Positions 3,863 to 48,035 are shown, numbered from the stretch's first letter. The stretch is DNA of 64,000 nt from Lachnospiraceae bacterium (GCA_045601665.1 JAZRZZ010000010.1:100370-164369), one strand, 5' to 3'. Numbers and translations: made by a program. The notes: generated by a model from the sequence alone, not told the origin.

Positions 3863-4426
3863 ATGGAGGACGAGATGATGAATGAGATTTTGAAGCCCTT
3901 TGAAACAAAGATGACTAAGACACAGGACAACCTGAAGGAAGAGTATTCGAATATCCGTGCAGGTCGTGCGAACCCGCACTTGTTGGATAAGATCAAGGTT
4001 GATTATTACGGTTCGCCGACGAATCTTCAGCAGGTTGCGAACGTTTCCGTACCCGAGGCAAGAGTGATTATGATTCAGCCCTGGGAAGCAAGAATGATTA
4101 AGGAGATTGAGAAAGCGATTCTTGCTTCTGAGCTCGGAATTACACCGAGCAACGACGGCAAGGTAATTCGTCTTACTTTCCCTGAGCTTACCGAGGAGCG
4201 CCGTAAGGAGCTCTCGAAGGATGTGAAGAAGAAAGGGGAAAATGCAAAGGTTGCGATTCGTAACATCCGTCGTGATGCGAACGATGCCATCAAGAAAGCA
4301 GGCAAGGAACTCTCTGAGGATGAAGTGAAGAAGATGGAGAATGACGCGCAGAAGATGACGGACAAGTTCATTGCAGATATCGATAAGATGGTTGAGGACA
4401 AGACGAAGGAAATTATGACCGTATAA
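3863..4426 (+). CDS. frr: Ribosome recycling factor
   Basis: 187 aa with typical RRF sequence (RAGRANPHLLDKIKVDYYG, LTEERRKEL). Position after pyrH. Confidence 0.93.
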   Translation: MEDEMMNEILKPFETKMTKTQDNLKEEYSNIRAGRANPHLLDKIKVDYYGSPTNLQQVANVSVPEARVIMIQPWEARMIKEIEKAILASELGITPSNDGKVIRLTFPELTEERRKELSKDVKKKGENAKVAIRNIRRDANDAIKKAGKELSEDEVKKMENDAQKMTDKFIADIDKMVEDKTKEIMTV

Positions 4427-4441
4427 TATGGATGAGGGATT

Positions 4442-4461
4442 GGGCGTATGCAGATACGCCC
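4442..4461 (+). terminator. Hairpin just after frr (weak terminator or attenuator)
   Basis: GGGCGTAT-gcag-ATACGCCC begins 16 nt after the frr stop, with only a weak T-rich tail. It argues against the 4428 start for uppS. Confidence 0.45.
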
Positions 4462-4520
4462 AATTGTTCCATATAGACCGAATACCAATAGGAGCCGGAG
4501 ACGGAGGAAGGAAAGAAAGA

Positions 4521-5240
4521 GTGAGCGACAAAGAAAATTATGTAATTCCGAAGCATGTAGCGATTATTATGGATGGCAACGGACGTTGGGCGAAGAAGCG
4601 TTTTCTTCCGAGAAATGCGGGGCATGCACAAGGAAGCCGAGTGGCAGAGCAGATATGCGAGGATGCATTTGACCTTGGAATCGAATATTTGACCATCTAT
4701 GCGTTTTCTACGGAAAATTGGGTTCGTCCGAAGGAAGAAGTGGATGCATTGATGAATTTGCTTCGCAGATATATGAAGGACAGTATCGAACGAAGCAGCA
4801 AGAACAATATGCGGGTGCGTGTGATTGGTGATATCGGACGTCTGGATGAGGATTTGCAACAGAGCATTCGGCAGTTAGAGGAAATCTCTTCGACAAATAC
4901 CGGCTTGAAATTTCAGGTTGCCATCAATTACGGAGGAAGAGATGAGATCCTCCGTGCGGCGAGAAAAATGGCGCAGGATTGCGTAGATGGAGCCATGAGG
5001 CCTGAGGAGTTGACGGAGGAGCGCTTCTATGGATATTTCGACACCTCGGATATTCCGTATCCGGATCTGATGATACGTACCAGCGGAGAGATGCGAACCT
5101 CAAACTTTCTGCCTTGGCAGTTGGCTTATTCGGAGTTTTATTTTACCGACGTTTTGTGGCCGGATTTTAACAAAAAAGAACTAAAGAAAGCCATTGATTA
5201 TTTTAATGGCAGAGACCGACGATTCGGAGGAGTGAAGTAA
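4521..5240 (+). CDS. uppS: Undecaprenyl (isoprenyl) diphosphate synthase
   Basis: HVAIIMDGNGRWAKKR motif. GTG at 4521 follows a GGAGGAAGG RBS. The longer 4428 start would run through the frr hairpin. Confidence 0.88.
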   Translation: MSDKENYVIPKHVAIIMDGNGRWAKKRFLPRNAGHAQGSRVAEQICEDAFDLGIEYLTIYAFSTENWVRPKEEVDALMNLLRRYMKDSIERSSKNNMRVRVIGDIGRLDEDLQQSIRQLEEISSTNTGLKFQVAINYGGRDEILRAARKMAQDCVDGAMRPEELTEERFYGYFDTSDIPYPDLMIRTSGEMRTSNFLPWQLAYSEFYFTDVLWPDFNKKELKKAIDYFNGRDRRFGGVK

Positions 5241-6040
5241 TGTTTATTGAACGTTTGATTAGCGGAATTGTGATGATGATCATTGCGATTGCAGCGATTT
5301 TTCTGGGAGACTATGTGCTGTTTGGGTTGATTTTGGCCATTTCCTTAATCGGAATGTACGAGCTGTATCGTTTGTTTCATATGGAGCGTACGGTTCCGGG
5401 AATTGTAGGATACCTTGCATGCATCGGTTATTTTTTGCTCATCCTTTTTGATAAGGAGCGCTTTGTTTTGCCGGGAGTTCTCGGATTTTTGTTGGTGTCG
5501 ATGATCTTATATGTCATTTATTTTCCGAAGTACAAGACCAATCAGATCATGGCCGTTTTCTTCGGGTTGTTCTACGTTGCAATGATGCTTTGTTGCATTT
5601 ATCGCATTCGTGAGATGGAACGTGGCGTATATCTTGTTTGGCTTGTGTTTATTGGCTCCTGGGGCTCGGATACTTGTGCGTATTGCGTAGGGCGTCTGAT
5701 AGGGAAACACAAAGCATTTCCGGTACTTAGTCCGAAGAAGTCATGGGAGGGCTGCGTCGGCGGTGTCGTGGGAGCTGCGCTGATTGGGGTGATTTATGCG
5801 GCAATTTTCCGTGAAAAGCTGACGGTGATTCCGTATCCGATGCTTGCGTTCTCGGTAATCGGGGCTGCTTCTGCGATAATTTCACAGGTTGGTGATTTGG
5901 CTGCTTCTGCAATGAAACGCGATTATGAGATCAAGGATTACGGGCATCTCATCCCCGGTCACGGCGGAATATTGGATCGTTTTGATAGCGTAATATTCAC
6001 GGCCCCGATCGTATATTATTTGTTGCAGTTTTTTGCATAA
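5240..6040 (+). CDS. cdsA: Phosphatidate cytidylyltransferase
   Basis: Multi-TM protein with the C-terminal CDS signature (SAMKRDYEIKDYGHLIPGHGGILDRFDS). Its ATG overlaps the uppS stop (TAATG). Confidence 0.9.
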   Translation: MFIERLISGIVMMIIAIAAIFLGDYVLFGLILAISLIGMYELYRLFHMERTVPGIVGYLACIGYFLLILFDKERFVLPGVLGFLLVSMILYVIYFPKYKTNQIMAVFFGLFYVAMMLCCIYRIREMERGVYLVWLVFIGSWGSDTCAYCVGRLIGKHKAFPVLSPKKSWEGCVGGVVGAALIGVIYAAIFREKLTVIPYPMLAFSVIGAASAIISQVGDLAASAMKRDYEIKDYGHLIPGHGGILDRFDSVIFTAPIVYYLLQFFA

Positions 6041-6076
6041 AAAAGGACGAAGTAAGACTTGTTCTGGAGGAAGAAA

Positions 6077-7249
6077 ATGAAGCATATAGCGATTCTCGGG
6101 TCTACCGGATCGATCGGAACACAGACATTGGACATTGTCAGGGAATTTCCCGAGGAATTAAAGGTTGAGGCATTGACCGCAAATCGAAGCGTGGAGCTTT
6201 TGGAGGCGCAGATACGTGAGTTTCGACCGAAGTTGGTCGGAGTGTATGACGAAAAATGTGCCGCGGAGCTGAGATTACGCATTCGTGACTTAGATGGAGT
6301 GTCGGTTGTGAGTGGCATGGAGGGTTTGATTTCCTGTGCAACCTGCGACATGGTGGAGATCGTTGTGACTGCGGTGGTCGGCATGATCGGCTTGCGCCCA
6401 ACGGTAGCGGCCATTTGTGCGGGAAAGGACATTGCACTTGCGAACAAAGAGACGCTTGTAACGGCAGGACATCTGATTATGCCGCTATTGCAGGAATACG
6501 GCGTTGGCTTGTACCCGATTGACAGCGAACATTCTGCGATTTTTCAGTCGCTGCAGGGGCTTGCGTATCGAGGGGAAATCTCAGAAGGGCATCCGGCCAT
6601 TCGTCGCATTTTATTAACGGCATCGGGGGGACCTTTTCGTGGACAGACACTGTCGCAAATGTACAACTACACCGTGGAAGATGCTCTGAAGCATCCGAAC
6701 TGGGCCATGGGAAGTAAGATTACGATAGATTCCGCCACGATGGTTAACAAAGGACTTGAGATGATGGAGGCGCGTTGGTTGTTCGGTGTTTCTCCGGAGC
6801 AGATTACCGTGCTTGTGCATCCACAGAGTGTACTGCATTCGGCGGTCGAATTTGTCGATGGAGCGGTGGTCGGACAGATGGGGACTCCGGATATGAAGCT
6901 GCCGATCCGTTATGCATTGTTTTATCCGGAGCGAAAACCTTCGCCGGCGGAGCCGCTGGATCTGTTTCGTGTGGGACATTTGGACTTTGAAGAACCGGAT
7001 AGAGAGAATTTTCCGGCATTTGCTTTGGCGGAAAGGATAATGCGCGAGGGTGGTTCCTTGCCGACGGTATACAATGCGGCAAATGAATATGCCGTAGCGC
7101 AATTTCTCGAAAAAAATATCGGTTTCACCGAAATCGGCGAGTATATTGCATATGCGGTTGAGCATCATACAAAAATCGAGAATCCTACGCTTGCGCAGAT
7201 TCTTGAAATCGAACAGGAAACATATGCATTATTAAAGTGTATGAAGTAA
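6077..7249 (+). CDS. dxr: 1-deoxy-D-xylulose 5-phosphate reductoisomerase
   Basis: MKHIAILGSTGSIGTQTLD N-terminus and ANKE, DSEHSA, NKGLE motifs. RBS GGAGGAAG lies before the ATG at 6077. Confidence 0.92.
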   Translation: MKHIAILGSTGSIGTQTLDIVREFPEELKVEALTANRSVELLEAQIREFRPKLVGVYDEKCAAELRLRIRDLDGVSVVSGMEGLISCATCDMVEIVVTAVVGMIGLRPTVAAICAGKDIALANKETLVTAGHLIMPLLQEYGVGLYPIDSEHSAIFQSLQGLAYRGEISEGHPAIRRILLTASGGPFRGQTLSQMYNYTVEDALKHPNWAMGSKITIDSATMVNKGLEMMEARWLFGVSPEQITVLVHPQSVLHSAVEFVDGAVVGQMGTPDMKLPIRYALFYPERKPSPAEPLDLFRVGHLDFEEPDRENFPAFALAERIMREGGSLPTVYNAANEYAVAQFLEKNIGFTEIGEYIAYAVEHHTKIENPTLAQILEIEQETYALLKCMK

Positions 7250-7261
7250 GAAAGGGACGTT

Positions 7262-8566
7262 ATGAATCTGATAAATATATTGCTTGCCATGCTGATTATC
7301 AGCTTTGTTATTATTTTTCATGAGCTGGGGCATTTTCTTGTGGCAAAGGCAAACGGAATTGTTGTCACAGAGTTTTCGCTCGGAATGGGGCCGCGTATTT
7401 TGAGCAAAAAAATCGGCGAAACCAGATATTCGTGGAAGCTGTTTCCGCTCGGTGGCTCCTGTATGATGCTTGGGGAGGACGAAGGGAGCGATGCCCCCGG
7501 GACCTTTAATAGCAAAACTGTGTGGCAGCGAATCAGCGTTGTATTTGCCGGACCGTTTTTTAATTTTATTCTGGCTTTTGTGATGGCATGCGTGATTCTT
7601 GGGGTGATTGGCTACGACGAGCCGTTCGTATACGGAATCAGCGAAGAGGTTGCACAGAAGACCGGTCTACAAGCAGAGGATGTGTTGACATCGTACAACG
7701 GGCATAAGATTCGCATCGGACGTGAAATGGCACTTTATGAGCAGTTGGACGGGATTGAAGAAGGTTCGATTACGATTACGTACGTACGTGACGGTAAGGA
7801 ATATGAAGCAACCTATGATGCGATATTGAATGATCGATATTATCTTGGTATTCAATATACGGCAGAGGAAACGGCTGCGATGATCTTGTCCGCAGTAACG
7901 GCGGACGGCGCGGCAGAAGCGGCGGGGATGAAGACCGGTGACAAGATTGTTGCGGTGGATGGAGTCGAAATTGCGACAGTGAAGGAATTTCAAGTGTATT
8001 TGGATGAAAATCCGCTGACGGGAACAGCGGTTACCTTGACGTACGAACGCGATGGGAAGACGTCCGATGTAACGCTTACTCCGATTCACAGTCGGAATTA
8101 TACGCTCGGCTTTTCGTATAATTACGGATATCGTGAGAAAATCGGCGCTTTACAGGTCGTTAAGTATGGATTTGTCGAAGTGAATTATTGGATCAAATCG
8201 ACGATTAAGAGTCTCGGATACATTTTCTCGGGAAAGGCTTCGACGGAGGATATCGGTGGACCGGTTCGCGTGGTTAGCGAAATGAGCAATGTGGTTGAGG
8301 AGAGCTATACGACCGATGGGGCATTGTACGCGTTTCTCAATCTTCTTAATTGGGGGATTCTGCTCAGTGCGAACCTGGGTGTGATGAATCTGTTGCCGAT
8401 TCCGGCATTGGACGGCGGACGTTTGCTTTTTATGTTTATCGAGGTGATTCGCGGAAAGAAAATGGATCCGGAGAAGGAAGGCATCGTGCATTTTGTCGGA
8501 TTTGTATTGCTGATGATCTTAATGCTATTTATCTTTTTCAACGACATTCGAAACATCATTCCTTAA
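7262..8566 (+). CDS. rseP: RIP (site-2) zinc metalloprotease RseP/RasP family
   Basis: HELGH motif at the N-terminus, internal PDZ-like region, C-terminal [11 protein letters not shown] motif. Synteny after dxr. Confidence 0.9.
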
Positions 8567-8576
8567 GGGGGCAGTT

Positions 8577-9641
8577 ATGATACGGAAACAGACGAAGACG
8601 ATTGCAATCGGCAACCGTGTGATCGGCGGGGGCAATCCGATACTGATACAATCGATGTGCAATACAAGGACCGAGGATGTTGTGGCAACGGTGGCGCAGA
8701 TACGTCGCTTAACCGAGCTTGGCTGTGACATCATTCGAGTAGCGGTGCCGAACAAAGAGGCCGTGGAGGCAATTCGGGAGATTAAGAAACAGATTACGAT
8801 TCCGCTGGTCGCGGATATCCATTTTGATTATCGGCTGGCAATCGCCGCAATTGAGGCCGGAGCCGATAAGATTCGCATCAATCCCGGCAATATCGGGAGC
8901 AGGGAACGGATTGCAGCAGTCGTAGAGAAGGCAAAGGAATACCATATTCCTATTCGTGTCGGTGTCAACAGTGGTTCACTGGAAAAGGAACTGGTGGCGA
9001 AGTACGGAAGGGTAACCGCCGAGGGCTTGGTGGAAAGTGCATTGTCAAAGGTGCGTATTCTCGAGGAGTTGGATTTTTATAATATCGTGATCAGTATTAA
9101 GTCTTCCGATGTTTTGATGTCGATTGAGGCACATGAATTGCTGTCAAAGGAGACCGATTATCCGCTTCATGTGGGGATTACGGAGGCCGGCTCTGTATAT
9201 GCGGGAAACATCAAGTCCGCAATCGGACTCGGAACGATTTTGCACGCCGGAATCGGGGATACGATTCGTGTGTCATTGACGGATAAGCCGGAGGAAGAGA
9301 TTCGTTCCGCAAAGCTTATCCTCCGCACGCTTGGACTACGAAAAGGCGGCATAGAATTGGTGTCGTGTCCCACCTGTGGAAGGACGCAAATTGATTTGAT
9401 TGGTCTCGCAAAAGAAGTGGAGACGATGGTTGAGCAATACGATCTTGATATTAAGGTTGCTGTTATGGGCTGTGTGGTGAACGGACCGGGAGAGGCAAAG
9501 GAAGCGGACATCGGGATTGCCGGTGGCATTGGTGAGGGCTTGCTGATACGAAAGGGAGAAGTCTTGCGAAAGGTTCCGGAGTCGGAGCTTTTGGAGGAAT
9601 TAAAGAAAGAATTGGATGCTCTTGCTGCGGCACACGCGTAG
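8577..9641 (+). CDS. ispG: 4-hydroxy-3-methylbut-2-en-1-yl diphosphate synthase
   Basis: Typical GcpE sequence ([31 protein letters not shown]). Confidence 0.92.
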
Positions 9642-9683: not shown

Positions 9684-12600
9684 ATGAAGCTATTTCAGGT
9701 ATTTGATCAATTAAGTCTTGACGGATATTTGGAAAGTGAGTTTGGAGCTTGTGATGTCGAGCGGATTACCAGTTCCAAATCGCAGCCGTTGATTTGTATT
9801 TATTTGCGTGCACAACGACCGATTCGCCCTGCCCTTGTACGACTGCTTGAGACGGAGCTAAAGCGTCAGTATTTTTTCGATACCGATAAGCGTGTTTACA
9901 TAGCAATGCGGTATTCGGTAGAAGATTCGAAGACCCCGACGGAGCTTTGGTCACAATTTTCGTCGATGCTTTCGGAGGAGTTGATGCTTGGAAACCACTT
10001 GGATGCGAATATCGTTTCCGAAGCAAAGGCATCGGAGGAGGCAAATGCTTTGGTGCTCACGATCGAGGACAACGGGCTTACGCGTACACGTTGCAAGGGG
10101 TTGGCGACACGCTTGTCGGAGATGTTGAGTGAGTGGACGGGGCGTGAGTGTCCGGTGCGTTTTGCATTGGAGGAGATTGAGCATAAGACACCGGCAGAGG
10201 AAGAACGAATCTACAGCGTAGAAGAGATTCTTGCAAGGGCTCATCGCAGAGCATCGACGGAGGTATCCAAGGAGTCGGTGAAACCGCGTGACTTACAGAA
10301 GCCAAAGCCGAAGGAGCCGACACCGCCACCGAAGAAAGAAGGTGGGGAGCAGAAGTATCGCAGACCTGCAGCACCGGCCGATCCCGATATCTTTTTCGGC
10401 AAACCGTTTGATACGAGCAACCTGACGCCGATTTGTGAGATTCAGGACGAAATCGGTGATGTGGTGATTCGCGGGAAGATCATTAAGTACGAGGATCGCG
10501 AATTGAAGAATGGTAAGCTGTTGTGTAATATAGCAGTTACGGACTTCACCGACACGATTAGTGTAAAACTGTTTGTTACAAAGGAGCAGCTTACGGAGGT
10601 AAAGAGCAATATCTCCGAGGGTGCATTTGTTCTGCTCAAGGGAACTGCTATGTTCGATAAGTTTGATCATGAGGTTGGTATCGGTTCGGTATACGGAGTG
10701 AAGAAGATTACGGACTTTACATACAAACGTAAGGATACTTCCTCCGAGAAGCGTGTGGAGCTTCATTGCCACACGCAGATGAGCGATATGGATGCGGTGG
10801 TTGATACGAAGACACTGGTCAACACTGCATTTGCATGGGGACACCCGGGGATTGCGATTACGGATCACGGAGTTGTACAGTCCTTTGTCGATGCGTCACA
10901 TGCGATTGATCCGAAGAAGTTCGGAGACGATGCGGAGAAACTCGAGCGGTATAAAAACTTTAAGATTATTTATGGTATGGAAGGATATATCGTAGATGAT
11001 GAGGTGGCACGCAAGGACGATGGGACACCGTACGATCTTGAAGCAGACAAGGATGAGATTAAGAAATTAAAGAGTCATCACATCATTCTTCTATGTAAGA
11101 ACGATGTGGGGCGCATCAATCTTTATCGGTTAGCATCGGTGTCACATATTGATTATTTTCATAGGACGCCTCGCATTCCGAAGAGTTTGTTGCGGCGTTA
11201 TCGCGAAGGGTTGATTATCGGTTCCGCGTGTGAGGCAGGCGAGCTGTTTCAAGCCATTGCCACAGAGCAGTCCGAGGAAGAGATTCGAAGAATTGGGGAT
11301 TTCTACGATTATTACGAGGTACAGCCGATCGGGAATAATGCCTTTATGAAGGAAAGCGAGCATTTTCCGAATGTAACAAGCGACAATGATTTGATTGAGC
11401 TAAATAAAAAAATTATTCGTCTTGCGGAGGAGCACGGCAAGTTGTGTATTGCGACCGGTGATGTGCACTTTTTAAATCCGGAGGATGAAATTTACCGTCG
11501 CATTATTATGGCGGGCAAGGGATTCGCGGATGCGGATCGGCAACCACCGCTTTATTTCCGCACGACGGAGGAGATGCTCGATGAGTTTCGCTATGTACCG
11601 CGTGAAAAGGCGATGGAGCTTGTGGTGACGAATCCGCAGAAAATATGTGACATGGTGGATCGGATTCAGCCGGTACGTCCGGACAAATGTCCTCCGGTCA
11701 TTGAGGACTCTGACAAGGAGCTTCGTGATTTGTGTTATCAAACGGCACATGGCATGTACGGGGAACAGCTTCCCGTGCAGGTGGAGCAACGTCTTGAAAA
11801 GGAACTGAACTCTATCATTAGTAACGGCTTTGCGGTTATGTATATCATCGCTCAGCGCCTTGTGAAGCATTCGAATGAGGACGGTTATCTGGTGGGATCC
11901 CGAGGTTCGGTCGGTTCGTCGTTTGTCGCGACGATGTCCGGAATTACGGAAGTCAATCCTCTGCCGGCACATTATTATTGCATGCATTGTCATTTCTATG
12001 ATTTTGATTCGAAAGAGGTGCAGGCATATTCGCAGATGTCCGGGTATGACATGCCTGATCGTATCTGTCCGGTATGTGGCAAACCATTGAAAAAGGACGG
12101 TCAGAACATCCCGTTCGAGACGTTCCTTGGATTCTACGGTGACAAGGAGCCGGATATCGATTTGAATTTCTCCGGCGAATACCAAAGTAAGGCACATGCC
12201 TACACAGAGGTGCTGTTTGGAAAAGGACATACGTTCCGTGCGGGAACGATCGGAACGCTTGCGGATAAGACTGCGTATGGCTTTATTAAGAAATATTACG
12301 AAGAACGCGGCATTCACAAGCGAGCAGCAGAGATTGAACGTATTGTACAGGGGTGCGTCGGCGTACGTCGTACGACGGGGCAGCATCCCGGAGGAATCGT
12401 TGTTCTTCCGCACGGTGAGGAGATATATTCCTTTACGGCAGTGCAACGACCGGCGAATGATATGTCGACCACAACGGTCACCACTCATTTTGATTACCAT
12501 TCCATTGATCATAATCTGCTGAAGCTTGATATTCTCGGTCACGATGATCCGACGATGATTCGTATGCTTGAAGATTTGACCGGTTTGGATGCAAAGGAGA

Positions 12601-13589
12601 TTCCGATGGATGATCCGAAGGTTGTTTCGTTATTTGCTTCTACCGAAGCTCTTGGAATTCGACCGGAGGACATCGACGGGTGCGATCTCGGAAGTCTCGG
12701 CTTGCCGGAGCTTGGCACAGATTTCGTTATGCAGATGCTTCGAGATACGAAGCCGAAGAGTTTTTCGGATATGATTCGAATCTCCGGATTGTCACACGGT
12801 ACTGACGTGTGGCTGAACAATACACAAACCTTGATCGCCGAAGAAAAATGTACACTTTCGACGGCCATTTGTACGCGAGATGACATTATGGTGTATTTGA
12901 TTCATATGGGGGTTGAGAACGGCAAGGCATTCAAAATCATGGAGAGCGTGCGAAAGGGTAAGGGACTGACGGACGATATGGAAGAGGCGATGAAGGCTTG
13001 CAATGTGCCGGATTGGTACATTTGGTCATGCAAGCGCATCAAGTACATGTTCCCGAAGGCGCATGCTTGTGCTTACGTTATGATGGCGTTTCGTATTGCG
13101 TACTGTAAGGTGTATTATCCGCTTGCATATTATGCGGCATATTTTTCGATTCGTGCCAAGGCGTTCAGTTATGAGCTGATGGCCATGGGAAGAGACAAAT
13201 TGGAGCGCTATATTGCTGACTTCAAGCGTCGTAGCAATGACTTGAGCAATAAAGAGCAGGATCAGTTGAAGGATATGAAGATTGTACAGGAGATGTACGC
13301 GAGAGGCTTTGAATTTATGCCTATCGACATTTATCGTGTCAAGGCAACGCGTTTTCAGATTATCGATGATAAGATTATGCCGTCGTTAACGTCCATTGAT
13401 GGTCTCGGTGAAAATGCCGCAATGCAGATTGAAGAAGGCATGAAGGAAGGCGAGATTCTCTCGAGGGACGACTTCCGTACACGTTGCCATATCGGACAAA
13501 GTACGGTAGAGATGATGAACGATCTCGGTTTGTTTGGTGATCTTCCGGAATCCAATCAGCTGAGTTTTGAGGATATGTTTCAGTTATAA
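9684..13589 (+). CDS. polC: DNA polymerase III alpha subunit, PolC type, lacking the inserted 3'-5' exonuclease domain
   Basis: Aligns by eye with B. subtilis PolC across the OB fold, PHP motifs (HCHTQMSDMD, ITDHG, YGMEG, HHIILL, TGDVHFLNPED), Zn module (CMHC...CPVCG), palm and fingers (GSRGSVGSSFVA, PDIDLNF, KLDILGHDD) and the C-terminal HhH. No FDxETTG, NxxFD or HxAxxD exonuclease motifs are present. Confidence 0.9.
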   Translation: MKLFQVFDQLSLDGYLESEFGACDVERITSSKSQPLICIYLRAQRPIRPALVRLLETELKRQYFFDTDKRVYIAMRYSVEDSKTPTELWSQFSSMLSEELMLGNHLDANIVSEAKASEEANALVLTIEDNGLTRTRCKGLATRLSEMLSEWTGRECPVRFALEEIEHKTPAEEERIYSVEEILARAHRRASTEVSKESVKPRDLQKPKPKEPTPPPKKEGGEQKYRRPAAPADPDIFFGKPFDTSNLTPICEIQDEIGDVVIRGKIIKYEDRELKNGKLLCNIAVTDFTDTISVKLFVTKEQLTEVKSNISEGAFVLLKGTAMFDKFDHEVGIGSVYGVKKITDFTYKRKDTSSEKRVELHCHTQMSDMDAVVDTKTLVNTAFAWGHPGIAITDHGVVQSFVDASHAIDPKKFGDDAEKLERYKNFKIIYGMEGYIVDDEVARKDDGTPYDLEADKDEIKKLKSHHIILLCKNDVGRINLYRLASVSHIDYFHRTPRIPKSLLRRYREGLIIGSACEAGELFQAIATEQSEEEIRRIGDFYDYYEVQPIGNNAFMKESEHFPNVTSDNDLIELNKKIIRLAEEHGKLCIATGDVHFLNPEDEIYRRIIMAGKGFADADRQPPLYFRTTEEMLDEFRYVPREKAMELVVTNPQKICDMVDRIQPVRPDKCPPVIEDSDKELRDLCYQTAHGMYGEQLPVQVEQRLEKELNSIISNGFAVMYIIAQRLVKHSNEDGYLVGSRGSVGSSFVATMSGITEVNPLPAHYYCMHCHFYDFDSKEVQAYSQMSGYDMPDRICPVCGKPLKKDGQNIPFETFLGFYGDKEPDIDLNFSGEYQSKAHAYTEVLFGKGHTFRAGTIGTLADKTAYGFIKKYYEERGIHKRAAEIERIVQGCVGVRRTTGQHPGGIVVLPHGEEIYSFTAVQRPANDMSTTTVTTHFDYHSIDHNLLKLDILGHDDPTMIRMLEDLTGLDAKEIPMDDPKVVSLFASTEALGIRPEDIDGCDLGSLGLPELGTDFVMQMLRDTKPKSFSDMIRISGLSHGTDVWLNNTQTLIAEEKCTLSTAICTRDDIMVYLIHMGVENGKAFKIMESVRKGKGLTDDMEEAMKACNVPDWYIWSCKRIKYMFPKAHACAYVMMAFRIAYCKVYYPLAYYAAYFSIRAKAFSYELMAMGRDKLERYIADFKRRSNDLSNKEQDQLKDMKIVQEMYARGFEFMPIDIYRVKATRFQIIDDKIMPSLTSIDGLGENAAMQIEEGMKEGEILSRDDFRTRCHIGQSTVEMMNDLGLFGDLPESNQLSFEDMFQL

Positions 13590-13604: not shown

Positions 13605-15656
13605 ATGCTAGGAATTGTATATCTTGTCATGTGCTTTGCCGTAGGGCTTTGCATTGTTTCGTGTATGATGCCGGACATGCGTGAAGCGAAAGCATATGAT
13701 GTTACGGGACGGTGTCGTCGGAGGAATCCGTTCTTCGTCGTCTTTCCTGCGGCCTTTGTCAGCGGAACGCTGCTGATGACTTGGGCATTGTATGCATTGG
13801 CATGGATGTTTTCCAAAGCGGCACCCAATCCGTTGTTGCATGCAAATGCAATACTTCTTGTTGCAGTACTATATGTGCTTGTCTGCCTTCGGAAGAGGCT
13901 TGGTATTCGCAAGCTTCTTCGCAGTATGCGCTTTACGCGAGGAGAGGTATACTTTATTACATTTGCTTTCGGAATTTCTTTGATCGTAATGCTTGCCAGC
14001 TTTCGAGTAGTGAGGGGAGAGGTCTGTATCGGAGCTCCGGTGACCGGTGATTTTTCGGTGCACATAAGTATGATCCGTTCTTTTTCACGAATGCAAAATG
14101 TTCCGGCAGACTATCCTTTGTTTGCGGGGAGTGATCTCAAATATCATTTTATGTTTGATTTCCTTGTAGGAAACCTTGAATTCCTCGGAATGAGAATTGA
14201 TCACGCGTTCAATGTTCCGAGCATTCTGTCAATGATGTCGATGCTGTTTGCACTTTATGCGGTGGCACTACGTATTAGTGGCAACTGCTTGGCGGCGGCC
14301 TTGGCAGGTGTGTTTGCGATGCTTCGCAGCTCACTCGGTCTGTTTACGCAACTACGAAGCGAGGAATTTTCGAGCGTGGAGCAATTTTTGGAAAATCGTA
14401 CGTATGTCGGAAGCGCACCCTTGGAATCTTGGGGAATCTACGGACTGAATACGTTTATTAATCAACGGCATTTGTGCTTTGGCTTTGCGGTGGCACTTGT
14501 TGTTATCTACATGTTTTTAGAGTTTCTTCGGGAAGGGGTGGCGAATCTGCGGCTCCTAACAGGGAAGAAGGAGAGACGTCCGGAGCATCCGCTCCGATAT
14601 TGGTGGACGCACGATGCATTTCCGGTGGACAACAAAGGAATTCGTTACGGTCTGTTTGCAAGTGCTTTGCTCGGCATGAATACGTATTTTCATGGACCGT
14701 CCACCATTAGTGCATTGCTTGTGTTGTTTGTTCTGGCGTTTGCATCGGGACATAAGATGACGTTTTTGTTTACGGCTGCGGTTACGGTAGTGCTTGCGTA
14801 TGTACAATTGGAGTTCTTTGCAGCTGGTGGAGAGACCTTTGCCGTTACTTGGCGGCCGGGATGGATTCTCGAAAATTCCGGCATAAGAGAGTACATAGAC
14901 TTCTTTGTGTGTGTGATTGGGATATTGTCGATTCTCGTTTTGTTCTATTTGGTTACAGCAAAGGTAGAGAAGAAGATTGCGGTGCTATCTATGTTTCTAC
15001 CGCTTTTATTTGCCTTTACGATACAGATGACCCCGGATATAAACCAGAACCACAAATACATTCTTTTCACATTTATGCTACTCTCCGTGTGCTCCGGAGA
15101 GCTGATTGCACGCTTGTATATCAAGGGAAAAGCACTTCTGCGTAGCGGTGTCGGTATTGTCTACCTCAGCGTTGCAGTGGCTTTTTCCGTGTTGTTGACG
15201 GCAACCGGAACGTATGACTTTCTTACGCTGTTAAATAAGTGCAAATGGGATTATGCATATCACATACCGGTGGAGGAAGATTTCGCCCATTGGGCGGAGA
15301 CGGCAGGAGTAGATAACGATACGCTGTTTTTGTGCGGTGGGAATTATCTGTCTCCGCTGACCTTCGCAGGTGTGGAGATCTATCTCGGACATTCCCTCTT
15401 CCCGTGGTCGGCCGGCTACGACGTGGCGGAGCGCCTTGAATGGGAAAAGGCAATCTATTCTGCGACGAACCGGGAGCATCTTCGGACATTGGCAAATGCA
15501 ATCGGTGTGGACTATATCGTTATCAATCGTACCGTGCGGTTACGTGGCGAAGGATATCAGGTAAACGAAGATCTTTTCGAGGAGACGTTTCCGATTTCCT
15601 ATCGGACTGATGAAGGGGAATGGATGTTTACGGTGTATCGAGTAGAGGAAGAGTGA
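13605..15656 (+). CDS. Large polytopic membrane protein of unknown function (possible GT-C / DUF2298-like fold)
   Basis: 683 aa with at least 12 predicted hydrophobic helices and a soluble C-terminal domain of about 110 aa. The loop motif PADYPLFAGSDLKYHFMFDF resembles the aromatic loop of YYY/DUF2298-type membrane proteins. The family assignment is tentative. Confidence 0.6.
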   Translation: MLGIVYLVMCFAVGLCIVSCMMPDMREAKAYDVTGRCRRRNPFFVVFPAAFVSGTLLMTWALYALAWMFSKAAPNPLLHANAILLVAVLYVLVCLRKRLGIRKLLRSMRFTRGEVYFITFAFGISLIVMLASFRVVRGEVCIGAPVTGDFSVHISMIRSFSRMQNVPADYPLFAGSDLKYHFMFDFLVGNLEFLGMRIDHAFNVPSILSMMSMLFALYAVALRISGNCLAAALAGVFAMLRSSLGLFTQLRSEEFSSVEQFLENRTYVGSAPLESWGIYGLNTFINQRHLCFGFAVALVVIYMFLEFLREGVANLRLLTGKKERRPEHPLRYWWTHDAFPVDNKGIRYGLFASALLGMNTYFHGPSTISALLVLFVLAFASGHKMTFLFTAAVTVVLAYVQLEFFAAGGETFAVTWRPGWILENSGIREYIDFFVCVIGILSILVLFYLVTAKVEKKIAVLSMFLPLLFAFTIQMTPDINQNHKYILFTFMLLSVCSGELIARLYIKGKALLRSGVGIVYLSVAVAFSVLLTATGTYDFLTLLNKCKWDYAYHIPVEEDFAHWAETAGVDNDTLFLCGGNYLSPLTFAGVEIYLGHSLFPWSAGYDVAERLEWEKAIYSATNREHLRTLANAIGVDYIVINRTVRLRGEGYQVNEDLFEETFPISYRTDEGEWMFTVYRVEEE

Positions 15657-15698: not shown

Positions 15699-15727
15699 TT
15701 GCATTTTCGATTTTTATGTGATAATAT
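15699..15727 (+). promoter_or_regulatory. Sigma-A type promoter of the tRNA-Glu gene
   Basis: TTGCAT, 17 nt spacer, TAATAT with an extended TG (TGATAATAT). The -10 ends about 16 nt before the tRNA 5' end. Confidence 0.65.
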
Positions 15728-15743
15728 CGTGGACGTAGCATTT

Positions 15744-15815
15744 GGCTCGTTGGTCAAGCGGTTAAGACGTCGCCCTCTCACGGCGAAAACAGGGGTTCGA
15801 TTCCCCTACGAGCTG
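15744..15815 (+). tRNA. tRNA-Glu (anticodon CUC)
   Basis: Folds by hand into a cloverleaf. Acceptor GGCTCGT/ACGAGCT (G1-U72), D arm GTC/GAC, anticodon stem TCGCC/GGCGA with loop CTCTCAC, T arm AGGGG-TTCGATT-CCCCT. Closely resembles Bacillus tRNA-Glu. No encoded CCA. Confidence 0.9.
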
Positions 15816-15819
15816 TTTC

Positions 15820-15851
15820 AAAGACCGGATTCCGCGGAATCCGGTCTTTTG
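15820..15851 (+). terminator. Rho-independent terminator after tRNA-Glu
   Basis: AAGACCGGATTC-cgcg-GAATCCGGTCTT followed by TTTG. Confidence 0.85.
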
Positions 15852-15926
15852 TATACCGGAACCTTTGTGGGAACCGATGTGATCCGTGTAACTGGAAGGC
15901 TTAGATCTGTATTATGGAGAGTTGCT

Positions 15927-17156
15927 ATGAAGAATGTATGTAAGTTGCTATTGTTGTTTGTTTTTGTACTTATGCTGGTAGGCTGTGAGAATGCGTCTGA
16001 CGATTCCAAAACCACGCCTACACCGGAGGGGGCTATATCCCCCGAGTTATCCCCGTCACCGGAAGCGACGACGCCGACCGCGACACCGACGCCGACCGGT
16101 CCGGACATTGACAGCATGACCTTAAGGGAGCGTTATGACGGAATCTTTCGAATCGGTGTTGCGCTTCCTAACTATGTAATCAAAATCCCTATGTTTATGG
16201 AAGTTGTAAAGCGTGAGTTTAACAGCTTTACCTTTGAAAATGAGATGAAGCCGGACCATTTGTTGAATGCAAATGCCTGCCAAAGCGGATATCCCGGTAC
16301 AAATACCGAACCGGTATTGAATTTCAGCGGCACAACCACGGGAATGCAGTGGGCCGTAGAAAACGATTTCGGCGTGAGAGGTCATACGCTTGTATGGCAC
16401 AGTCAGACCCCCAAATGGTTCTTTACGACGGATTATAAGCCGAACAGCCCTTTGGCGAGTCGTGAGGTTATGTTGAAGCGTATGGAGAGCTACATACGTC
16501 AGGTGTTGACGTATTATCAGGAGACATACCCCGGTGTAATCTATGCATGGGACGTGGTAAATGAGGCCATTGAGCCGGCACACGGACACGAGGGTGGTAT
16601 GAGAACCGACGATAGTTTGTGGTACCAGACCATCGGTGAGGATTTTGTATACTGGGCATTTTACTATGCATCAAAGTATGCGGATGAGGGAGTGGATCTC
16701 TATTACAACGATTACAACTGTGCGCAGAAGAGAACTGCGATCATTAAGCTTCTTGCTCCGATTTTGGAGGAAGGCTTGATTGACGGCATCGGTATGCAAT
16801 GTCACTTGAGTACGAGCAATAAGATTGCAAATGATGTATATTATACCGCGCATGCATTTGCGGATGCCGGTTTTCAGGTACAGATTACCGAGTTGGATAT
16901 GCAACAGGCCAGCGAATCGGCGAACTCCGACGACGCACAGGCGATGAAGTATAAGGTTCTTTTTGAGCGTATGGAAGGTGCAAAAAAGAACGGCAAGATT
17001 CAGATTGACAGCGTGACGGTTTGGGGCTTGTATGACCAAATTTCCTGGATAGAAGGAAGTCCGCTGTTGTTCCGTTTGGGAAACAACGGTGTGGAGAAGA
17101 AGCCCGCTTGGTATGGTGCGATGCAGGATCCGCGTATTTTGGCAATAGAGTGGTAA
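15927..17156 (+). CDS. Endo-1,4-beta-xylanase, glycoside hydrolase family 10, lipoprotein
   Basis: Signal peptide with lipobox LVGC, then a Thr/Pro-rich linker. GH10 motifs HTLVWHSQTPKWFF, WDVVNEA and ITELDM. The ATG at 15927 follows GGAGA. The longer ORF-track start overlaps the tRNA. Confidence 0.88.
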   Translation: MKNVCKLLLLFVFVLMLVGCENASDDSKTTPTPEGAISPELSPSPEATTPTATPTPTGPDIDSMTLRERYDGIFRIGVALPNYVIKIPMFMEVVKREFNSFTFENEMKPDHLLNANACQSGYPGTNTEPVLNFSGTTTGMQWAVENDFGVRGHTLVWHSQTPKWFFTTDYKPNSPLASREVMLKRMESYIRQVLTYYQETYPGVIYAWDVVNEAIEPAHGHEGGMRTDDSLWYQTIGEDFVYWAFYYASKYADEGVDLYYNDYNCAQKRTAIIKLLAPILEEGLIDGIGMQCHLSTSNKIANDVYYTAHAFADAGFQVQITELDMQQASESANSDDAQAMKYKVLFERMEGAKKNGKIQIDSVTVWGLYDQISWIEGSPLLFRLGNNGVEKKPAWYGAMQDPRILAIEW

Positions 17157-43546: not shown

Positions 43547-44755
43547 ATGAAGCAGTATGTTTTATGCATTCTAGCGATAGCAATTGCAACAATATTGTAC
43601 TGTAGACAAGGAAAATGGGAAAACGATGTACCGGAACCGGGATACCTTGGACCGACCGAAAAGGTATTGCGTGAGGAGGAACCGGTATTGGAGAATCCGA
43701 TGGGAGTGCTAAATGCTCGCGCTGCATGTCTCATGGATGCGGCGAACGGAAGAGTGTTGTTTGGAAAGGACGAGAACGTGGAGCTTCCGATGGCGAGCAC
43801 AACAAAAATTATGACATGCATTTTAGCGCTCGAACACTGCCAAACGGATGAGATTGTGACGGTGAGCTCGTATGCTGCATCTATGCCGGATGTACAGATG
43901 AATATTAAAGCAGGGGAGCATTATCGTCTCCTTGATTTGCTATATTCCATGATGTTGGAAAGTCATAACGATTCTGCAGTTGCTGTAGCGGAGCATGTGG
44001 CCGGAAGCGAAGAAGAATTTTGCCGTATGATGACGGAGAAAGCAAAAAATCTCGGTTGCGTGCAAACGATGTTTGGTTCTGCAAATGGGTTGGATCGAGA
44101 GATGCATTATACAACGGCAAGTGAGCTGGCCTTAATCGCGTCCTATGCAATGAAGAATCCGATGTTTGTAAAGATCATACAGACGCAAACGCATACCGTA
44201 AAGGAGTTGGATGGCAAGCGAACTTGTTTGCTTAGTAATATTAACAAGTACTTGTATATGGATAGTGATGCCATGGGAATCAAGACCGGTTTCACCGGAA
44301 AGGCAGGATATTGTTTTGTCGGTGCAACCGCATACGAGGATACGGTTTTGATTTCGGTAGTGCTCGGTAGTGGATGGCCGCCGCACAAATCATACAAATG
44401 GACAGACACGAAACAACTCGTAGAATACGGGAGAACGCATTTTCACAGTAGCCATATGGAGCTTCGCGGAGAGGTTCTCGGAACTGTTTCTGTGGTGAAC
44501 GGGAGAAAAGGCACAGTTTCTGTCGGAGTACGAGAGGATTACGGTACAACGTTATTGCTTGGTGGAGAAAAAGTACATGTGCGCTATGAGGTTTGTGAAC
44601 AGTTGACGGCACCAGTGAATGTGGGGGATGAAGTAGGGGAAATGACCTTATACATTGGGGACACGTTATATGTGAAGCTTCCGATTTGTGCGGAGGAATC
44701 AGTTCCTTCGGTGGATTTGCCGTATTTTCTCGAAAAGCTTCTCGGGGGAATATAA
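43547..44755 (+). CDS. Serine-type D-Ala-D-Ala carboxypeptidase, second paralog
   Basis: N-terminal anchor, ASTTKIMT (SxxK), SHNDSA (SxN), IKTGFT (KTG) and a PBP5_C-like tail. Confidence 0.85.
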   Translation: MKQYVLCILAIAIATILYCRQGKWENDVPEPGYLGPTEKVLREEEPVLENPMGVLNARAACLMDAANGRVLFGKDENVELPMASTTKIMTCILALEHCQTDEIVTVSSYAASMPDVQMNIKAGEHYRLLDLLYSMMLESHNDSAVAVAEHVAGSEEEFCRMMTEKAKNLGCVQTMFGSANGLDREMHYTTASELALIASYAMKNPMFVKIIQTQTHTVKELDGKRTCLLSNINKYLYMDSDAMGIKTGFTGKAGYCFVGATAYEDTVLISVVLGSGWPPHKSYKWTDTKQLVEYGRTHFHSSHMELRGEVLGTVSVVNGRKGTVSVGVREDYGTTLLLGGEKVHVRYEVCEQLTAPVNVGDEVGEMTLYIGDTLYVKLPICAEESVPSVDLPYFLEKLLGGI

Positions 44756-44780
44756 CGCCGAGAAATGTCCTTTGAAATAC

Positions 44781-44809
44781 TTGAAATCCATTCTTTTGTG
44801 TGATAAAAT
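44781..44809 (+). promoter_or_regulatory. Candidate promoter of the SNF2 helicase gene
   Basis: TTGAAA, 17 nt spacer, TAAAAT with extended TG. Confidence 0.55.
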
Positions 44810-44834
44810 AATAAAATCGTTTTTAGAGAAAGGA

Positions 44835-47800
44835 ATGGCTTCGCGTACGATGAATTTGACGAAAAGTTTTATCAGAAGTTTGGCTCCAACAGAGGAGATA
44901 TTCGCAGATGGATTTTCGTATTATAAAAACGGACGGGTCACCGGTGCAGTGGCCTCCCGTGATAAAACCATGTATCAATTTACGGTTAAGGGCAATTTCA
45001 GTTATCAAGTAAATGTACGAATGACAGATGAACTTCAGTTTCGATGCACGTGTGCTGCAAGAGCAAAGGATACCGATGCTTGTTGTAAGCATGTCATTGC
45101 TTCCCTTTTGTTTTTGTTGCAATTTCGCAACAATAGTCAGCGAAAAGCGGATATGTCACCCGAAGAGCAACGCTCCGCACAGATTCTTGATTATTATTCC
45201 GAGCTCGAAGGTGGAATGGTCCAAGGTGAGACTTGTCATTTGCGTTTGTCGGTATCTTATAAAGGCATCTTGCGTCAGGCATCCGATACTATGGCGCTTC
45301 GCATTTCCATGGGAGCGGAGAAGTGCTATAAGGTACAGTCTGTAAAGAAGATGCTGGAGACGCTGCGTAGTGGGCAGAATCTTGTGCTTGGTAAGAATTT
45401 CACGTATCGTGCAGGGGTTACGGAGTTTGACCGTGCTTCACAAGCGGTATGCGCATATCTGACGGATGTGCTTGAACTTGAGGAACGCTATCATATTGTC
45501 GGCGAACGATCGGTATTTCAAAAAAATGAGGTGCTGTTAACCAAGAGAATGTTGCTCGAAGTACTGAAACGCTTGGGAAAAGAATCGTTCACTTTTGTTG
45601 TAAATGGTCGGCCGATTGAAAATATAACATTTTGCGATGATAATCCATTGATTGCATATGACATTGATGTAGATGAAGAATATGTGGCAATCGGATATGC
45701 GGACAGTGCCAGAGCCTTTCCCTTGACTGCAGATGGTGAGTTGATGTTTTATGACAATGTGATATATCATCCGAGGACACAGTTTACGAAGAATTATCTG
45801 CCGATTTATAATTCACTTTCCAAAGACAGTCCGCAGATTGTCTTTCGTGGAGAACAAGCGAAGGAATTTCTTGAGGAAGTATTGCCTCGTCTAAACGATA
45901 CAATGAATCTTCGAATTCCCGACAATCTAAAGGATCGATATTTGTCGTTCCCTCTGACGGCGATACTGTATCTTGATTATGTGTATGGCAATATTCGTGC
46001 GGAGCTAGAGTACCGATACGGAGAGTATTCATTCAATAGTTTTGCGGAACCGGATATTCATGGATACATTTTGATGCGTGACAAAGAAAAAGAAGAGGCG
46101 ATTGCAAAGGAGCTGCAGGACAGACACTTTGAAATTCATAGCGGATATTATTTGCTTCGAGATATGGATTCGATTTTTGATTTTGTTTCGGGAGAGCGCG
46201 GACGTCTTCCGGAACTTTGTGAGATGATGTATTCAAGTGGATTTCATAACCTTCGAATTACGAAGGGGGAAAAGGTTTCGTATCAAGTGCATATGAAATC
46301 GGATGAAGATTTTCTGTCGTTTGAAGTTTCTTACGAAGATGTTCCCAAGCAGGAATTAAAGGACATTTTCCGTTCGATGCAGTTGAAAAAGAAATATTAT
46401 CGACTTAAGGACGGAAACTTTCTTCTGCTTGATTCCGAGGCGCTACAGGACACCTTGGCGATCCTACGTACCGTGAACGGGGATACCAGGCATATGCGAG
46501 GGGATGAGATACGAATCGAGCGCTCGCAGGCTTGCTATTTGGAAGAGCTGCTTCGTTCTAAACAGTGTGATTTTTCGATGGATGAGCGTATTTATGAATT
46601 GTTGCATTCGTTAAAGAATCCGCCGCAGGTTGAGGTTCCGGAGGTGATTACCGCACAAGTGAGACCGTATCAGCGCATCGGCTTGTCGTGGATGTGCAAC
46701 CTAGCAGGAAATGGTATGGGTGGAATTTTGGCGGATGACATGGGCCTTGGTAAGACGTTACAGGCAATTATGTATATTACTACGTTGCCGAGCGAGGGTC
46801 AGAGTTTGATTGTTTGTCCAACTTCACTTATGTATAACTGGAAGGATGAGGTGGAAAATTTCACCTCAGAGGTCTCTTGCGAAATCGTATGCGGAACTCC
46901 GGAGGAGCGCAAGCATATTTTGCAGAAAACAAAGGCACAGATCTTGATCACGTCATATCCGTTGTTGCGACGTGACATCCGTTACTATACGGAACGGGTA
47001 TTTGAAACTGTCATTATTGATGAAGCGCAGAACATAAAGAACGGTTCTTCGATCAATGCACAGAGTGTAAAACAATTAAGTGCGAAGACACGTTTTGCAC
47101 TGACCGGTACCCCGATTGAAAACTCGCTTTCCGAGATATGGTCCATTTTTGACTTTGTGATGCCCGGGTATCTGTTAACACATCCGAAATTTGTCGCGGA
47201 ATACGAAAAGCCGATAATGAATAAGGATGAAGAGAAACTAAAGCAGCTGAATATGCGTATCAATCCATTTATCCTACGTAGAATGAAAAAGGATGTGCTA
47301 TCAGAACTTCCGGACAAAACAGAAGAGAAGATTCTTGTGGATCTCACGGATAAGCAGAAGAAACTTTATGCGGCATATCTTGAGCATTATAAGGGCGAAC
47401 TTCATCTGGAAGAGGAAGAAGAGAATCCGTTGATGCACAATCGCATTCGTATATTAAGTGCCTTGATGCGTTTGCGTCAGATTTGTTGCCATCCGAAAAC
47501 CTTTGTTGAGAATTACGAAGGGGATAGTTCGAAGCTGGAACTGTTGAATGAGTTGATCGTGAAGGCGAGAGAGTCCGGACATCGGATGCTGATTTTTTCA
47601 CAGTTCACCTCAATGCTTTCGATTATTAAGGGAGAATTGGATAGACAGCAAATTCCGTATTTTTGTATTGAAGGAGAAACAAAGATTGCCGATAGAACCC
47701 GATACGTGAAGGAGTTTAACGAAGGTACAAATGATGTATTTTTGATTTCCTTAAAGGCCGGTGGAACGGGTTTGAATCTGGTCGGTGCAGATACCGTAAT

Positions 47801-48035
47801 TCATGTGGATCCATGGTGGAATCCTGCGGTTGAAGATCAGGCGACCGATCGTGCATATCGTATCGGTCAGACGAAGAACGTGCATGTCATTAAGCTTTTG
47901 GCACGAGGTACGATCGAAGAAAAGATATATCGCCTTAAGAAAAAGAAACAATTGCTGGCGAACTCGGTGATTGATACTAATGAGGATTTTATGAATCATT
48001 TAACCAAGGAGGAGCTACTCGACATTTTTTCATAG
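44835..48035 (+). CDS. SWIM zinc-finger / SNF2-family helicase (YwqA/RapA-like)
   Basis: SWIM CxC...CxH (CTCAARAKDTDACCKHV). SNF2 ATPase motifs (LADDMGLGKT, DEAQNIKN, LTGTPIEN) and helicase C motifs (SLKAGGTGLNL, WWNPAVEDQATDRAYRIGQ). The ATG at 44835 follows AGAGAAAGGA. Confidence 0.88.
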   Translation: MASRTMNLTKSFIRSLAPTEEIFADGFSYYKNGRVTGAVASRDKTMYQFTVKGNFSYQVNVRMTDELQFRCTCAARAKDTDACCKHVIASLLFLLQFRNNSQRKADMSPEEQRSAQILDYYSELEGGMVQGETCHLRLSVSYKGILRQASDTMALRISMGAEKCYKVQSVKKMLETLRSGQNLVLGKNFTYRAGVTEFDRASQAVCAYLTDVLELEERYHIVGERSVFQKNEVLLTKRMLLEVLKRLGKESFTFVVNGRPIENITFCDDNPLIAYDIDVDEEYVAIGYADSARAFPLTADGELMFYDNVIYHPRTQFTKNYLPIYNSLSKDSPQIVFRGEQAKEFLEEVLPRLNDTMNLRIPDNLKDRYLSFPLTAILYLDYVYGNIRAELEYRYGEYSFNSFAEPDIHGYILMRDKEKEEAIAKELQDRHFEIHSGYYLLRDMDSIFDFVSGERGRLPELCEMMYSSGFHNLRITKGEKVSYQVHMKSDEDFLSFEVSYEDVPKQELKDIFRSMQLKKKYYRLKDGNFLLLDSEALQDTLAILRTVNGDTRHMRGDEIRIERSQACYLEELLRSKQCDFSMDERIYELLHSLKNPPQVEVPEVITAQVRPYQRIGLSWMCNLAGNGMGGILADDMGLGKTLQAIMYITTLPSEGQSLIVCPTSLMYNWKDEVENFTSEVSCEIVCGTPEERKHILQKTKAQILITSYPLLRRDIRYYTERVFETVIIDEAQNIKNGSSINAQSVKQLSAKTRFALTGTPIENSLSEIWSIFDFVMPGYLLTHPKFVAEYEKPIMNKDEEKLKQLNMRINPFILRRMKKDVLSELPDKTEEKILVDLTDKQKKLYAAYLEHYKGELHLEEEEENPLMHNRIRILSALMRLRQICCHPKTFVENYEGDSSKLELLNELIVKARESGHRMLIFSQFTSMLSIIKGELDRQQIPYFCIEGETKIADRTRYVKEFNEGTNDVFLISLKAGGTGLNLVGADTVIHVDPWWNPAVEDQATDRAYRIGQTKNVHVIKLLARGTIEEKIYRLKKKKQLLANSVIDTNEDFMNHLTKEELLDIFS

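Follow-up and report, generated by a model that had tools for sequence, protein, structure and literature searches.

The 64,000-nucleotide stretch of a Lachnospiraceae bacterium analysed here (GCA_045601665.1, JAZRZZ010000010.1:100370-164369; hereafter the window) carries on its plus strand a polC gene whose product lacks the DnaQ-like 3'-5' exonuclease (Exo) domain that is inserted into the PHP domain of canonical PolC. Taking all lines of evidence together, we consider, with moderate confidence, that the best overall explanation is an orthologous PolC without Exo domain ("exo-less" in what follows), from which DnaQ was excised in frame and whose PHP domain would proofread in cis. PolC is an antibiotic target, and its integral DnaQ domain is usually assumed to be its proofreader; natural PolCs that have no DnaQ domain and are conserved at the canonical locus would provide the cleanest material for testing whether the PHP domain of PolC can proofread. 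The gene and the parts of its product are, by window position:

9684..13589, plus strand: polC, a 1301-residue PolC-type DNA polymerase III alpha subunit that lacks the DnaQ-like Exo insertion (open reading frame, NCBIfam, Pfam, alignment with 3f2b)
9687..9878, plus strand: PolC N-terminal subdomain NI, residues 2-65 (PF14480, 24.5 bits against a cut-off of 22)
10461..10667, plus strand: OB fold, residues 260-328, preceding PHP as it does in PolC (PF01336, E 4e-5, under the gathering score; aligned with the OB fold of 3f2b)
10758..11000, plus strand: N-terminal part of PHP, residues 359-439, with ligands H361, H363, D370, H395 and E433 (PF02811, ligand columns, AlphaFold2 model)
11001..11075, plus strand: 25-residue junction, residues 440-464, in place of the ~180-residue Exo domain (alignment, AlphaFold2 model)
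11076..11603, plus strand: C-terminal part of PHP, residues 465-~640, with ligands H466, C516, D593 and H595 (Pfam, ligand columns, AlphaFold2 model, fold search)
11718..12968, plus strand: polymerase core (palm, thumb and fingers), residues 679-1095 (PF07733, PF17657; motif conservation)
13305..13550, plus strand: tandem helix-hairpin-helix (HhH) domain, residues 1208-1289 (PF14579)
13557..13580, plus strand: candidate beta-clamp-binding motif QLSFEDMF, C-terminal (C-terminal comparison; position as in the supplement of PMC3919608)

The open reading frame starts with ATG and runs uninterrupted through all 1301 residues, as expected from the claim of a preliminary description, made from the nucleotide sequence alone, that the architecture is continuous and in frame. 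The protein scores above the cut-offs of both NCBIfam equivalog models for PolC (NF001688, 1454.7 bits versus 873; TIGR01405, 1343.6 bits versus 1043.45), while an identity as DnaE1 was rejected: the best DnaE models, with cut-offs of 1260 and 1002, reach 196.7 and 192.7 bits. The PolC match is split into two stretches, the best of them restarting at position 605 of the 1445 in the NF001688 profile, and the Exo part is left unmatched. Pfam places PHP at residues 359-539, Pol3 alpha at 679-868, the fingers at 955-1095 and HhH at 1208-1289; an OB fold and a PolC-specific N-terminal domain (NTD) precede PHP, HhH lies at the C-terminus, and no DnaE-like C-terminal OB fold or C-terminal domain was matched. 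The polymerase-core motifs GSRGSVGSS, PDIDLNF and KLDILGHDD are present together with a Cys-rich zinc module (HYYCMHCH...CPVCG), and in an alignment of the 120 best homologues computed with MAFFT both PDIDLNF and GSRGSVGSS are identical in 120 of 120 sequences, KLDILGH(D/E)D being kept with a D/E variant. Judged by these profiles and this domain order, the protein is a PolC-type replicase, as had been proposed, though one that has lost what counts as a hallmark of PolC, the DEDDh exonuclease; exo-less proteins of this type are still classed as PolC variants in the survey of Timinskas, Balvociute, Timinskas & Venclovas (2014, NAR; PMC3919608). Over 899 well-aligned core columns, the protein shares 75-79% identity with the nearest Exo-containing PolCs, and its core identity to many exo-less PolCs is comparable. 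Conservation is uneven along the chain: identity to canonical relatives is 64-70% in the C-terminal part but falls to 31-34% over the N-terminal ~440 residues. Little is conserved within residues 66-250, where a Pro/Lys-rich linker lies at ~195-230 (window positions 9684-10740 encode residues 1-350), and Pfam gave no match to subdomain NII (PF11490) in the N-terminal third.

Several observations indicate that the exonuclease is missing from precisely the place where canonical PolC carries it. No match to RNase_T (PF00929) was returned by Pfam for the 1301-residue protein even at E<=1, and a regular-expression search for FDxETTG, NxxFD and HxAxxD found none of these motifs anywhere in it. In the alignment, the spacing from IYGMEGY to HIILL amounts to 237 residues in canonical relatives versus 56 in the window protein, and the FDIETTG, HNASFD and HRAVDD motifs of the canonical relatives all fall inside its gap, so that ~180 residues are gone exactly at the canonical Exo position. 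The flanking segments are joined by EVARKDDGTPYDLEADKDEIKKLKS, a stretch of 25 amino acids (residues 440-464, nucleotides 11001-11075) for which the preliminary description had given the right coordinates and a right account. Since both ends of this junction can be aligned with the short linkers that flank Exo in canonical PolC, one before and one after it, the domain was removed almost exactly at its boundaries. Comparison with known structures yields the same picture: the protein aligns in one stretch (residues 254-1295) with 3f2b, an engineered delta-Exo Geobacillus PolC, and its alignment with full-length PolC 9qpc falls into two stretches that leave out chain residues ~433-630. Taken together, these comparisons support a genuine, clean, in-frame absence of the exonuclease, and a search for a DEDD domain by hidden Markov model (HMM) or by Pfam, of which a match inside the protein had been named as a refuting outcome, gave none in the protein or in the 64-kb window.

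An assembly error, a frameshift or a pseudogene at ~11.0 kb would be another explanation for such a gap, and we regard its probability as negligible. In addition to the uninterrupted reading frame, composition is even around the junction, neither repeats nor a deletion scar were seen there, and the junction is modelled confidently (below). Moreover, the same junction architecture recurs in 37 clusters from independent assemblies, which excludes the misassembly that had been named as a possible refutation. These clusters, formed at the 90% identity level from assemblies held by NCBI, ENA, Logan and JGI, were returned by a protein search and comprise exo-less PolCs of 1147-1335 residues without PF00929 and with 59-81% identity to the window protein; all named relatives among them are labelled Lachnospiraceae. 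Among GTDB species representatives, a scan recovered 31 loci, and the exo-less ones come mostly from rumen metagenome-assembled genomes (MAGs; buffalo, goat, yak and the RUG series). As to the question whether the deletion is clade-wide, it is common to the 37 clusters, and the 83 canonical Lachnospiraceae PolCs examined keep the Exo domain. One homologue that at first appeared to have a rearranged architecture (P0006, 1865 residues) was rejected as such: it contains Exo and is internally duplicated, with window residues 456-873 and 539-1297 both matching consecutive parts of it, and is most likely an assembly artefact.

The genomic position of the gene argues for orthology. Immediately upstream of polC lies:

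3863..9641, plus strand: the gene string frr-uppS-cdsA-dxr-rseP-ispG, marker of the canonical polC locus (Pfam; ispG being the open reading frame 8577-9641 supported by tblastn matches; synteny)

Those exo-less loci that extend far enough upstream (L001-L008 and L016) have the complete order frr-uppS-cdsA-dxr-rseP-ispG-polC, the partial exo-less loci L017 and L018 show ispG-polC, and Exo-containing loci of Lachnospiraceae and other Clostridia have the same string, whole or in part. This canonical position makes the gene a positional orthologue of polC. It could nevertheless be asked whether the exo-less protein is a degenerate extra paralogue, with a full-length, Exo-containing polC elsewhere in the genome, given that extra PolC copies do exist, namely an additional exo-less copy in Thermotogae and two PolCs in Butyrivibrio proteoclasticus (PMC3919608). 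We consider this very improbable: the canonical ispG-polC slot is occupied at the exo-less loci with upstream flank, the protein is strongly conserved, and no MAG among the 31 loci of the genome scan gave two polC loci. Pfam on the ~50 sizeable open reading frames of the window likewise detected no second C-family polymerase within the 64 kb. Where complete genomes of Clostridia and Negativicutes have been published with an exo-less PolC, they encode no other PolC; within a non-redundant set, 12 genomes are listed in which it stands alone beside DnaE1 (PMC3919608, Table S2). We are thus highly confident that the gene encodes a genuine exo-less PolC that is the sole orthologue.

The evolution of the loss was examined in a neighbour-joining tree of exo-less and Exo-containing Lachnospiraceae PolCs, with 200 bootstraps and other Clostridia as the root. 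All exo-less sequences nest inside Exo-containing Lachnospiraceae PolCs, a placement by which the loss of Exo is derived within Lachnospiraceae. The group of the window protein (junction type A) is monophyletic in 185 of 200 bootstraps, and so, in 182 of 200, is another group whose junction differs (type B; P0036, P0037, P0045 and P0052). Although the neighbour-joining point estimate unites all exo-less sequences in one clade, their joint monophyly was recovered in just 13 of 200 bootstraps, so that anything from one to three losses is possible. Exo-less PolCs are also known from Negativicutes, and the loss in Lachnospiraceae most probably occurred independently of that one. Faster evolution of the exo-less lineages found no support: when Frr, UppS, Dxr and IspG were concatenated for a relative-rate test, distances to outgroups were 0.700 versus 0.715, without acceleration of the exo-less lineages, although this test is a weak one because protein distances are dominated by selection. 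Catalytic motifs that are all intact, conservation across 37 clusters and rates without acceleration show the PolC of the window to be a functional replicative polymerase under purifying selection.

What, then, would proofread in such an enzyme? The preliminary description had noted that the now contiguous PHP domain retains all classical metal ligands, and the nine ligands H361, H363, D370, H395, E433, H466, C516, D593 and H595 (HHDHEHCDH) are indeed all present. An AlphaFold2 model of residues 350-680 reached a mean predicted local distance difference test (pLDDT) of 91.5 and a predicted template-modelling score of 0.90, with a pLDDT of ~95 across the junction (10-residue block). In the PDB, it is best matched by structures of delta-Exo Geobacillus PolC (E 7.5e-29 in 334 alignment columns), while full-length PolC structures need ~500 columns against the model because of their insert. 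The window protein carries the active-site signature HHDHEH[C/H]DH by which PHP-proofreading C-family polymerases are recognised in a 2026 survey (PMC12926913), and its HHDHEHCDH is shared by 36 of the 37 exo-less clusters and by every one of the 83 canonical Lachnospiraceae PolCs that were compared. The latter count bears on a contrast drawn earlier between the DVH of the window protein and the NVH of Bacillus subtilis. The NVH side of this contrast fits Geobacillus PolC and 9qpc in the PDB alignments, but DVH is not a trait of exo-less proteins, and the idea that it is a compensatory change in the exo-less form was rejected, since the canonical Lachnospiraceae PolCs have it as well. From the aligned ligand columns, DVH versus NVH is a difference between Clostridia and Bacilli and not an exo-less feature, in agreement with the survey, in which the PHP domain of Clostridial PolC is rated "active" and that of bacteria with PolC and DnaE3 often "inactive" (PMC12926913).

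The one deviating exo-less cluster can be looked at closely. P0021 (partial, 1248 residues) differs from P0013 at 3 of 1248 aligned residues, and one of the differences is a Cys to Tyr exchange at the PHP cysteine ligand, equivalent to C516 of the window protein (nucleotides 11229-11231). The exchange resembles the C669Y hypermutator mutation of C. thermocellum discussed below, and could be either a natural mutator variant or a sequencing error.

These observations suggest the following scenario. In a Lachnospiraceae lineage known mostly from rumen MAGs, a DEDDh Exo domain of ~180 residues was excised in frame from PHP; the remainder, of the order NTD-OB-PHP-Pol3-HhH, is nature's counterpart to the engineered delta-Exo Geobacillus PolC, and 3'-5' proofreading would be carried out in cis by the trinuclear, nine-residue metal site of PHP. 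There is precedent for such an activity in the C family, the DnaE1 of Mycobacterium tuberculosis and the DnaE of Thermus being PHP proofreaders with an intact nine-residue site. Loss of DnaQ may also have been tolerable: Clostridial PolC normally contains two candidate proofreaders, PHP and DnaQ, and DnaE1 a third, which would make DnaQ redundant, and Clostridia usually have these three as "active" proofreaders (PMC12926913). Indirect support for proofreading by the PHP domain of PolC may be seen in the C669Y mutation of C. thermocellum, which raises the mutation rate ~30-fold in a bacterium whose PolC does have an Exo domain (Lanahan et al., bioRxiv 10.1101/2021.07.30.454558); C669 is the PHP cysteine ligand and, to judge from an aligned GSxC motif, corresponds to C516 of the window protein. 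By analogy with these systems we lean, if only slightly, towards the PHP domain as the main proofreader.

The following points weigh against such a role. In the literature, we found no biochemical demonstration of PHP exonuclease activity for any PolC. The phenotype of C669Y could be structural and need not reflect lost PHP catalysis. Exo-containing relatives have all nine ligands just as intact (83 of 83), which makes them ancestral and not a specific compensation for the loss of Exo. Finally, compensatory substitutions specific to the clade were looked for and rejected, as type A and canonical PolCs are separated by only nine fixed differences, none of which lies at the metal site.

Alternatively, proofreading might be provided in trans by a separately encoded DnaQ-like exonuclease of the epsilon type that docks on the exo-less PolC, as epsilon docks on DnaE in Escherichia coli. 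Bacterial proteomes indeed average more than 3 stand-alone DnaQ homologues (PMC12926913), and in Firmicutes a putative epsilon-binding patch is conserved on DnaE1 (PMC3919608). In the neighbourhood of polC, however, no candidate came to light. A PolC-Exo HMM built from the 83 canonical Exo domains was run on the window and on all 31 loci, each translated in six frames. It found no match in the 64-kb window and no Exo within +-10 kb of polC at any exo-less locus, its matches lying only inside canonical polC, and Pfam detected no DEDD/RNase_T domain in the ~50 sizeable open reading frames of the window. On the same evidence, the possibility that Exo had split off as a neighbouring gene was rejected. 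Both functional proposals of the preliminary description, PHP-based proofreading and an epsilon-like exonuclease in trans, are compatible with these data; overall, we regard proofreading in trans as unlikely.

A further possibility is that the exo-less PolC does not proofread at all and has a reduced or specialised role, with DnaE1 and its own intact PHP domain carrying out bulk replication; an auxiliary PolC of this kind has been raised for bacteria with PolC and DnaE1 (PMC3919608). A faint hint in this direction comes from the C-terminus, where QLSFEDMF occupies the expected place of the clamp motif (QxxL[F/M]-type) with a polar fifth residue, canonical relatives having QISLMDFL. Type A mostly has a polar residue at this fifth position (QLSFE, QLSFT, QMRLE), where the residue in QISLM is hydrophobic, a change that could make clamp binding weaker; QISLM or QMSLM is the form seen in canonical Lachnospiraceae PolCs and in the greater part of the type B exo-less group. 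Against an auxiliary role, conservation of the polymerase core equals that in canonical PolC, the PHP ligands are kept in all but one of the exo-less clusters, the gene is still at its canonical locus and the neighbouring proteins show no rate acceleration. The window also displays strong positive GC skew and gene co-orientation, both typical of PolC-replicated genomes. An auxiliary PolC that does not proofread thus appears quite improbable to us.

Returning to PHP proofreading in cis, it is tempting to speculate that an independent loss of DnaQ within the family (one to three times) leaves PHP as the sole cis proofreader of an essential PolC and, together with the altered clamp motif of type A, may mark a lineage with rewired fidelity and perhaps a rewired division of labour between PolC and DnaE1; we put this forward tentatively, as an idea with somewhat less than an even chance of being right. 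If it is true, the Exo-containing sister lineages at 75-79% core identity would amount to a closely controlled natural test of PHP proofreading in PolC.

As a kind of enzyme, exo-less PolC is not new, having been catalogued in 2014. In that survey, 6% of PolCs were without the Exo insertion, all of them in Clostridia and Negativicutes except for one extra copy in Thermotogae, and always in bacteria with PolC and DnaE1; the exo-less PolCs of Acidaminococcus fermentans (YP_003399045, 1191 residues) and A. intestini have HHDHEHCDH, and the four Lachnospiraceae genomes that we looked up in the supplement (B. proteoclasticus, C. phytofermentans, C. saccharolyticum and E. rectale) have PolC with Exo (PMC3919608). 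The window protein shares with the exo-less PolCs of Clostridia and Negativicutes the order NTD-OB-PHP-Pol3-HhH and the HHDHEHCDH signature, but its lineage differs from them in being nested among Exo-containing Lachnospiraceae. We found neither a published description of an exo-less PolC clade in Lachnospiraceae nor a publication on the biochemistry of a natural exo-less PolC. What is new is therefore the clade itself, known mostly from rumen MAGs and with very close Exo-containing relatives, and its value lies in a well-delimited new lineage with comparative detail, not in a new kind of enzyme.

Three further systems place the protein in context. With the canonical PolCs of B. subtilis, G. 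kaustophilus and S. aureus it shares the OB fold before PHP, the catalytic motifs, the zinc module, HhH, a candidate C-terminal clamp-type motif and the locus, and differs in lacking the DEDDh exonuclease; Geobacillus PolC and 9qpc, moreover, carry NVH, the signature of an "inactive" PHP, whereas the window protein has DVH like other Clostridia. In the engineered delta-N delta-Exo PolC of Geobacillus kaustophilus (3f2b, 3f2c, 3f2d), which was crystallised, Exo was cut at practically the same boundaries, but that construct is man-made, contains a Gly/Ser linker and has no N-terminal domain, while the window protein is natural and full-length and has a conserved 25-residue junction. Like the PHP-proofreading DnaE1 of M. 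tuberculosis and Thermus thermophilus, it combines an intact nine-residue PHP site with the lack of DnaQ in the same polypeptide, although it belongs to the PolC branch and its PHP exonuclease activity is predicted only by analogy.

Apart from polC, Pfam assigned ordinary housekeeping genes to the ~50 window open reading frames. Directly downstream of polC, a 683-residue open reading frame (13605-15656, plus strand) without a Pfam family apparently encodes, by eye, a multi-pass membrane protein, and a counterpart with 33-41% identity occupies the same position at the exo-less loci L002, L004, L005, L007 and L016. A tRNA gene (15744-15815, plus strand; Rfam, 64.4 bits) sits within the 5' end of open reading frame 15699-17156 as listed, a GH10 xylanase, whose true start must therefore lie further downstream. 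Between positions 48000 and 53100, GC skew falls to ~0.01-0.04, versus 0.14-0.30 elsewhere in the window, and GC content goes down to 0.39; the genes there are on the minus strand and encode a P-loop NTPase fragment, a cupin, a 776-residue protein without Pfam match and a zinc-ribbon protein, and the segment may be inserted or variable. Two other genes have no evident link to polC: one for a 1115-residue bacterial SNF2-family helicase with a SNF2_assoc domain (44688-48035, plus strand) and one for the LexA repressor (lexA, 61702-62313, minus strand).

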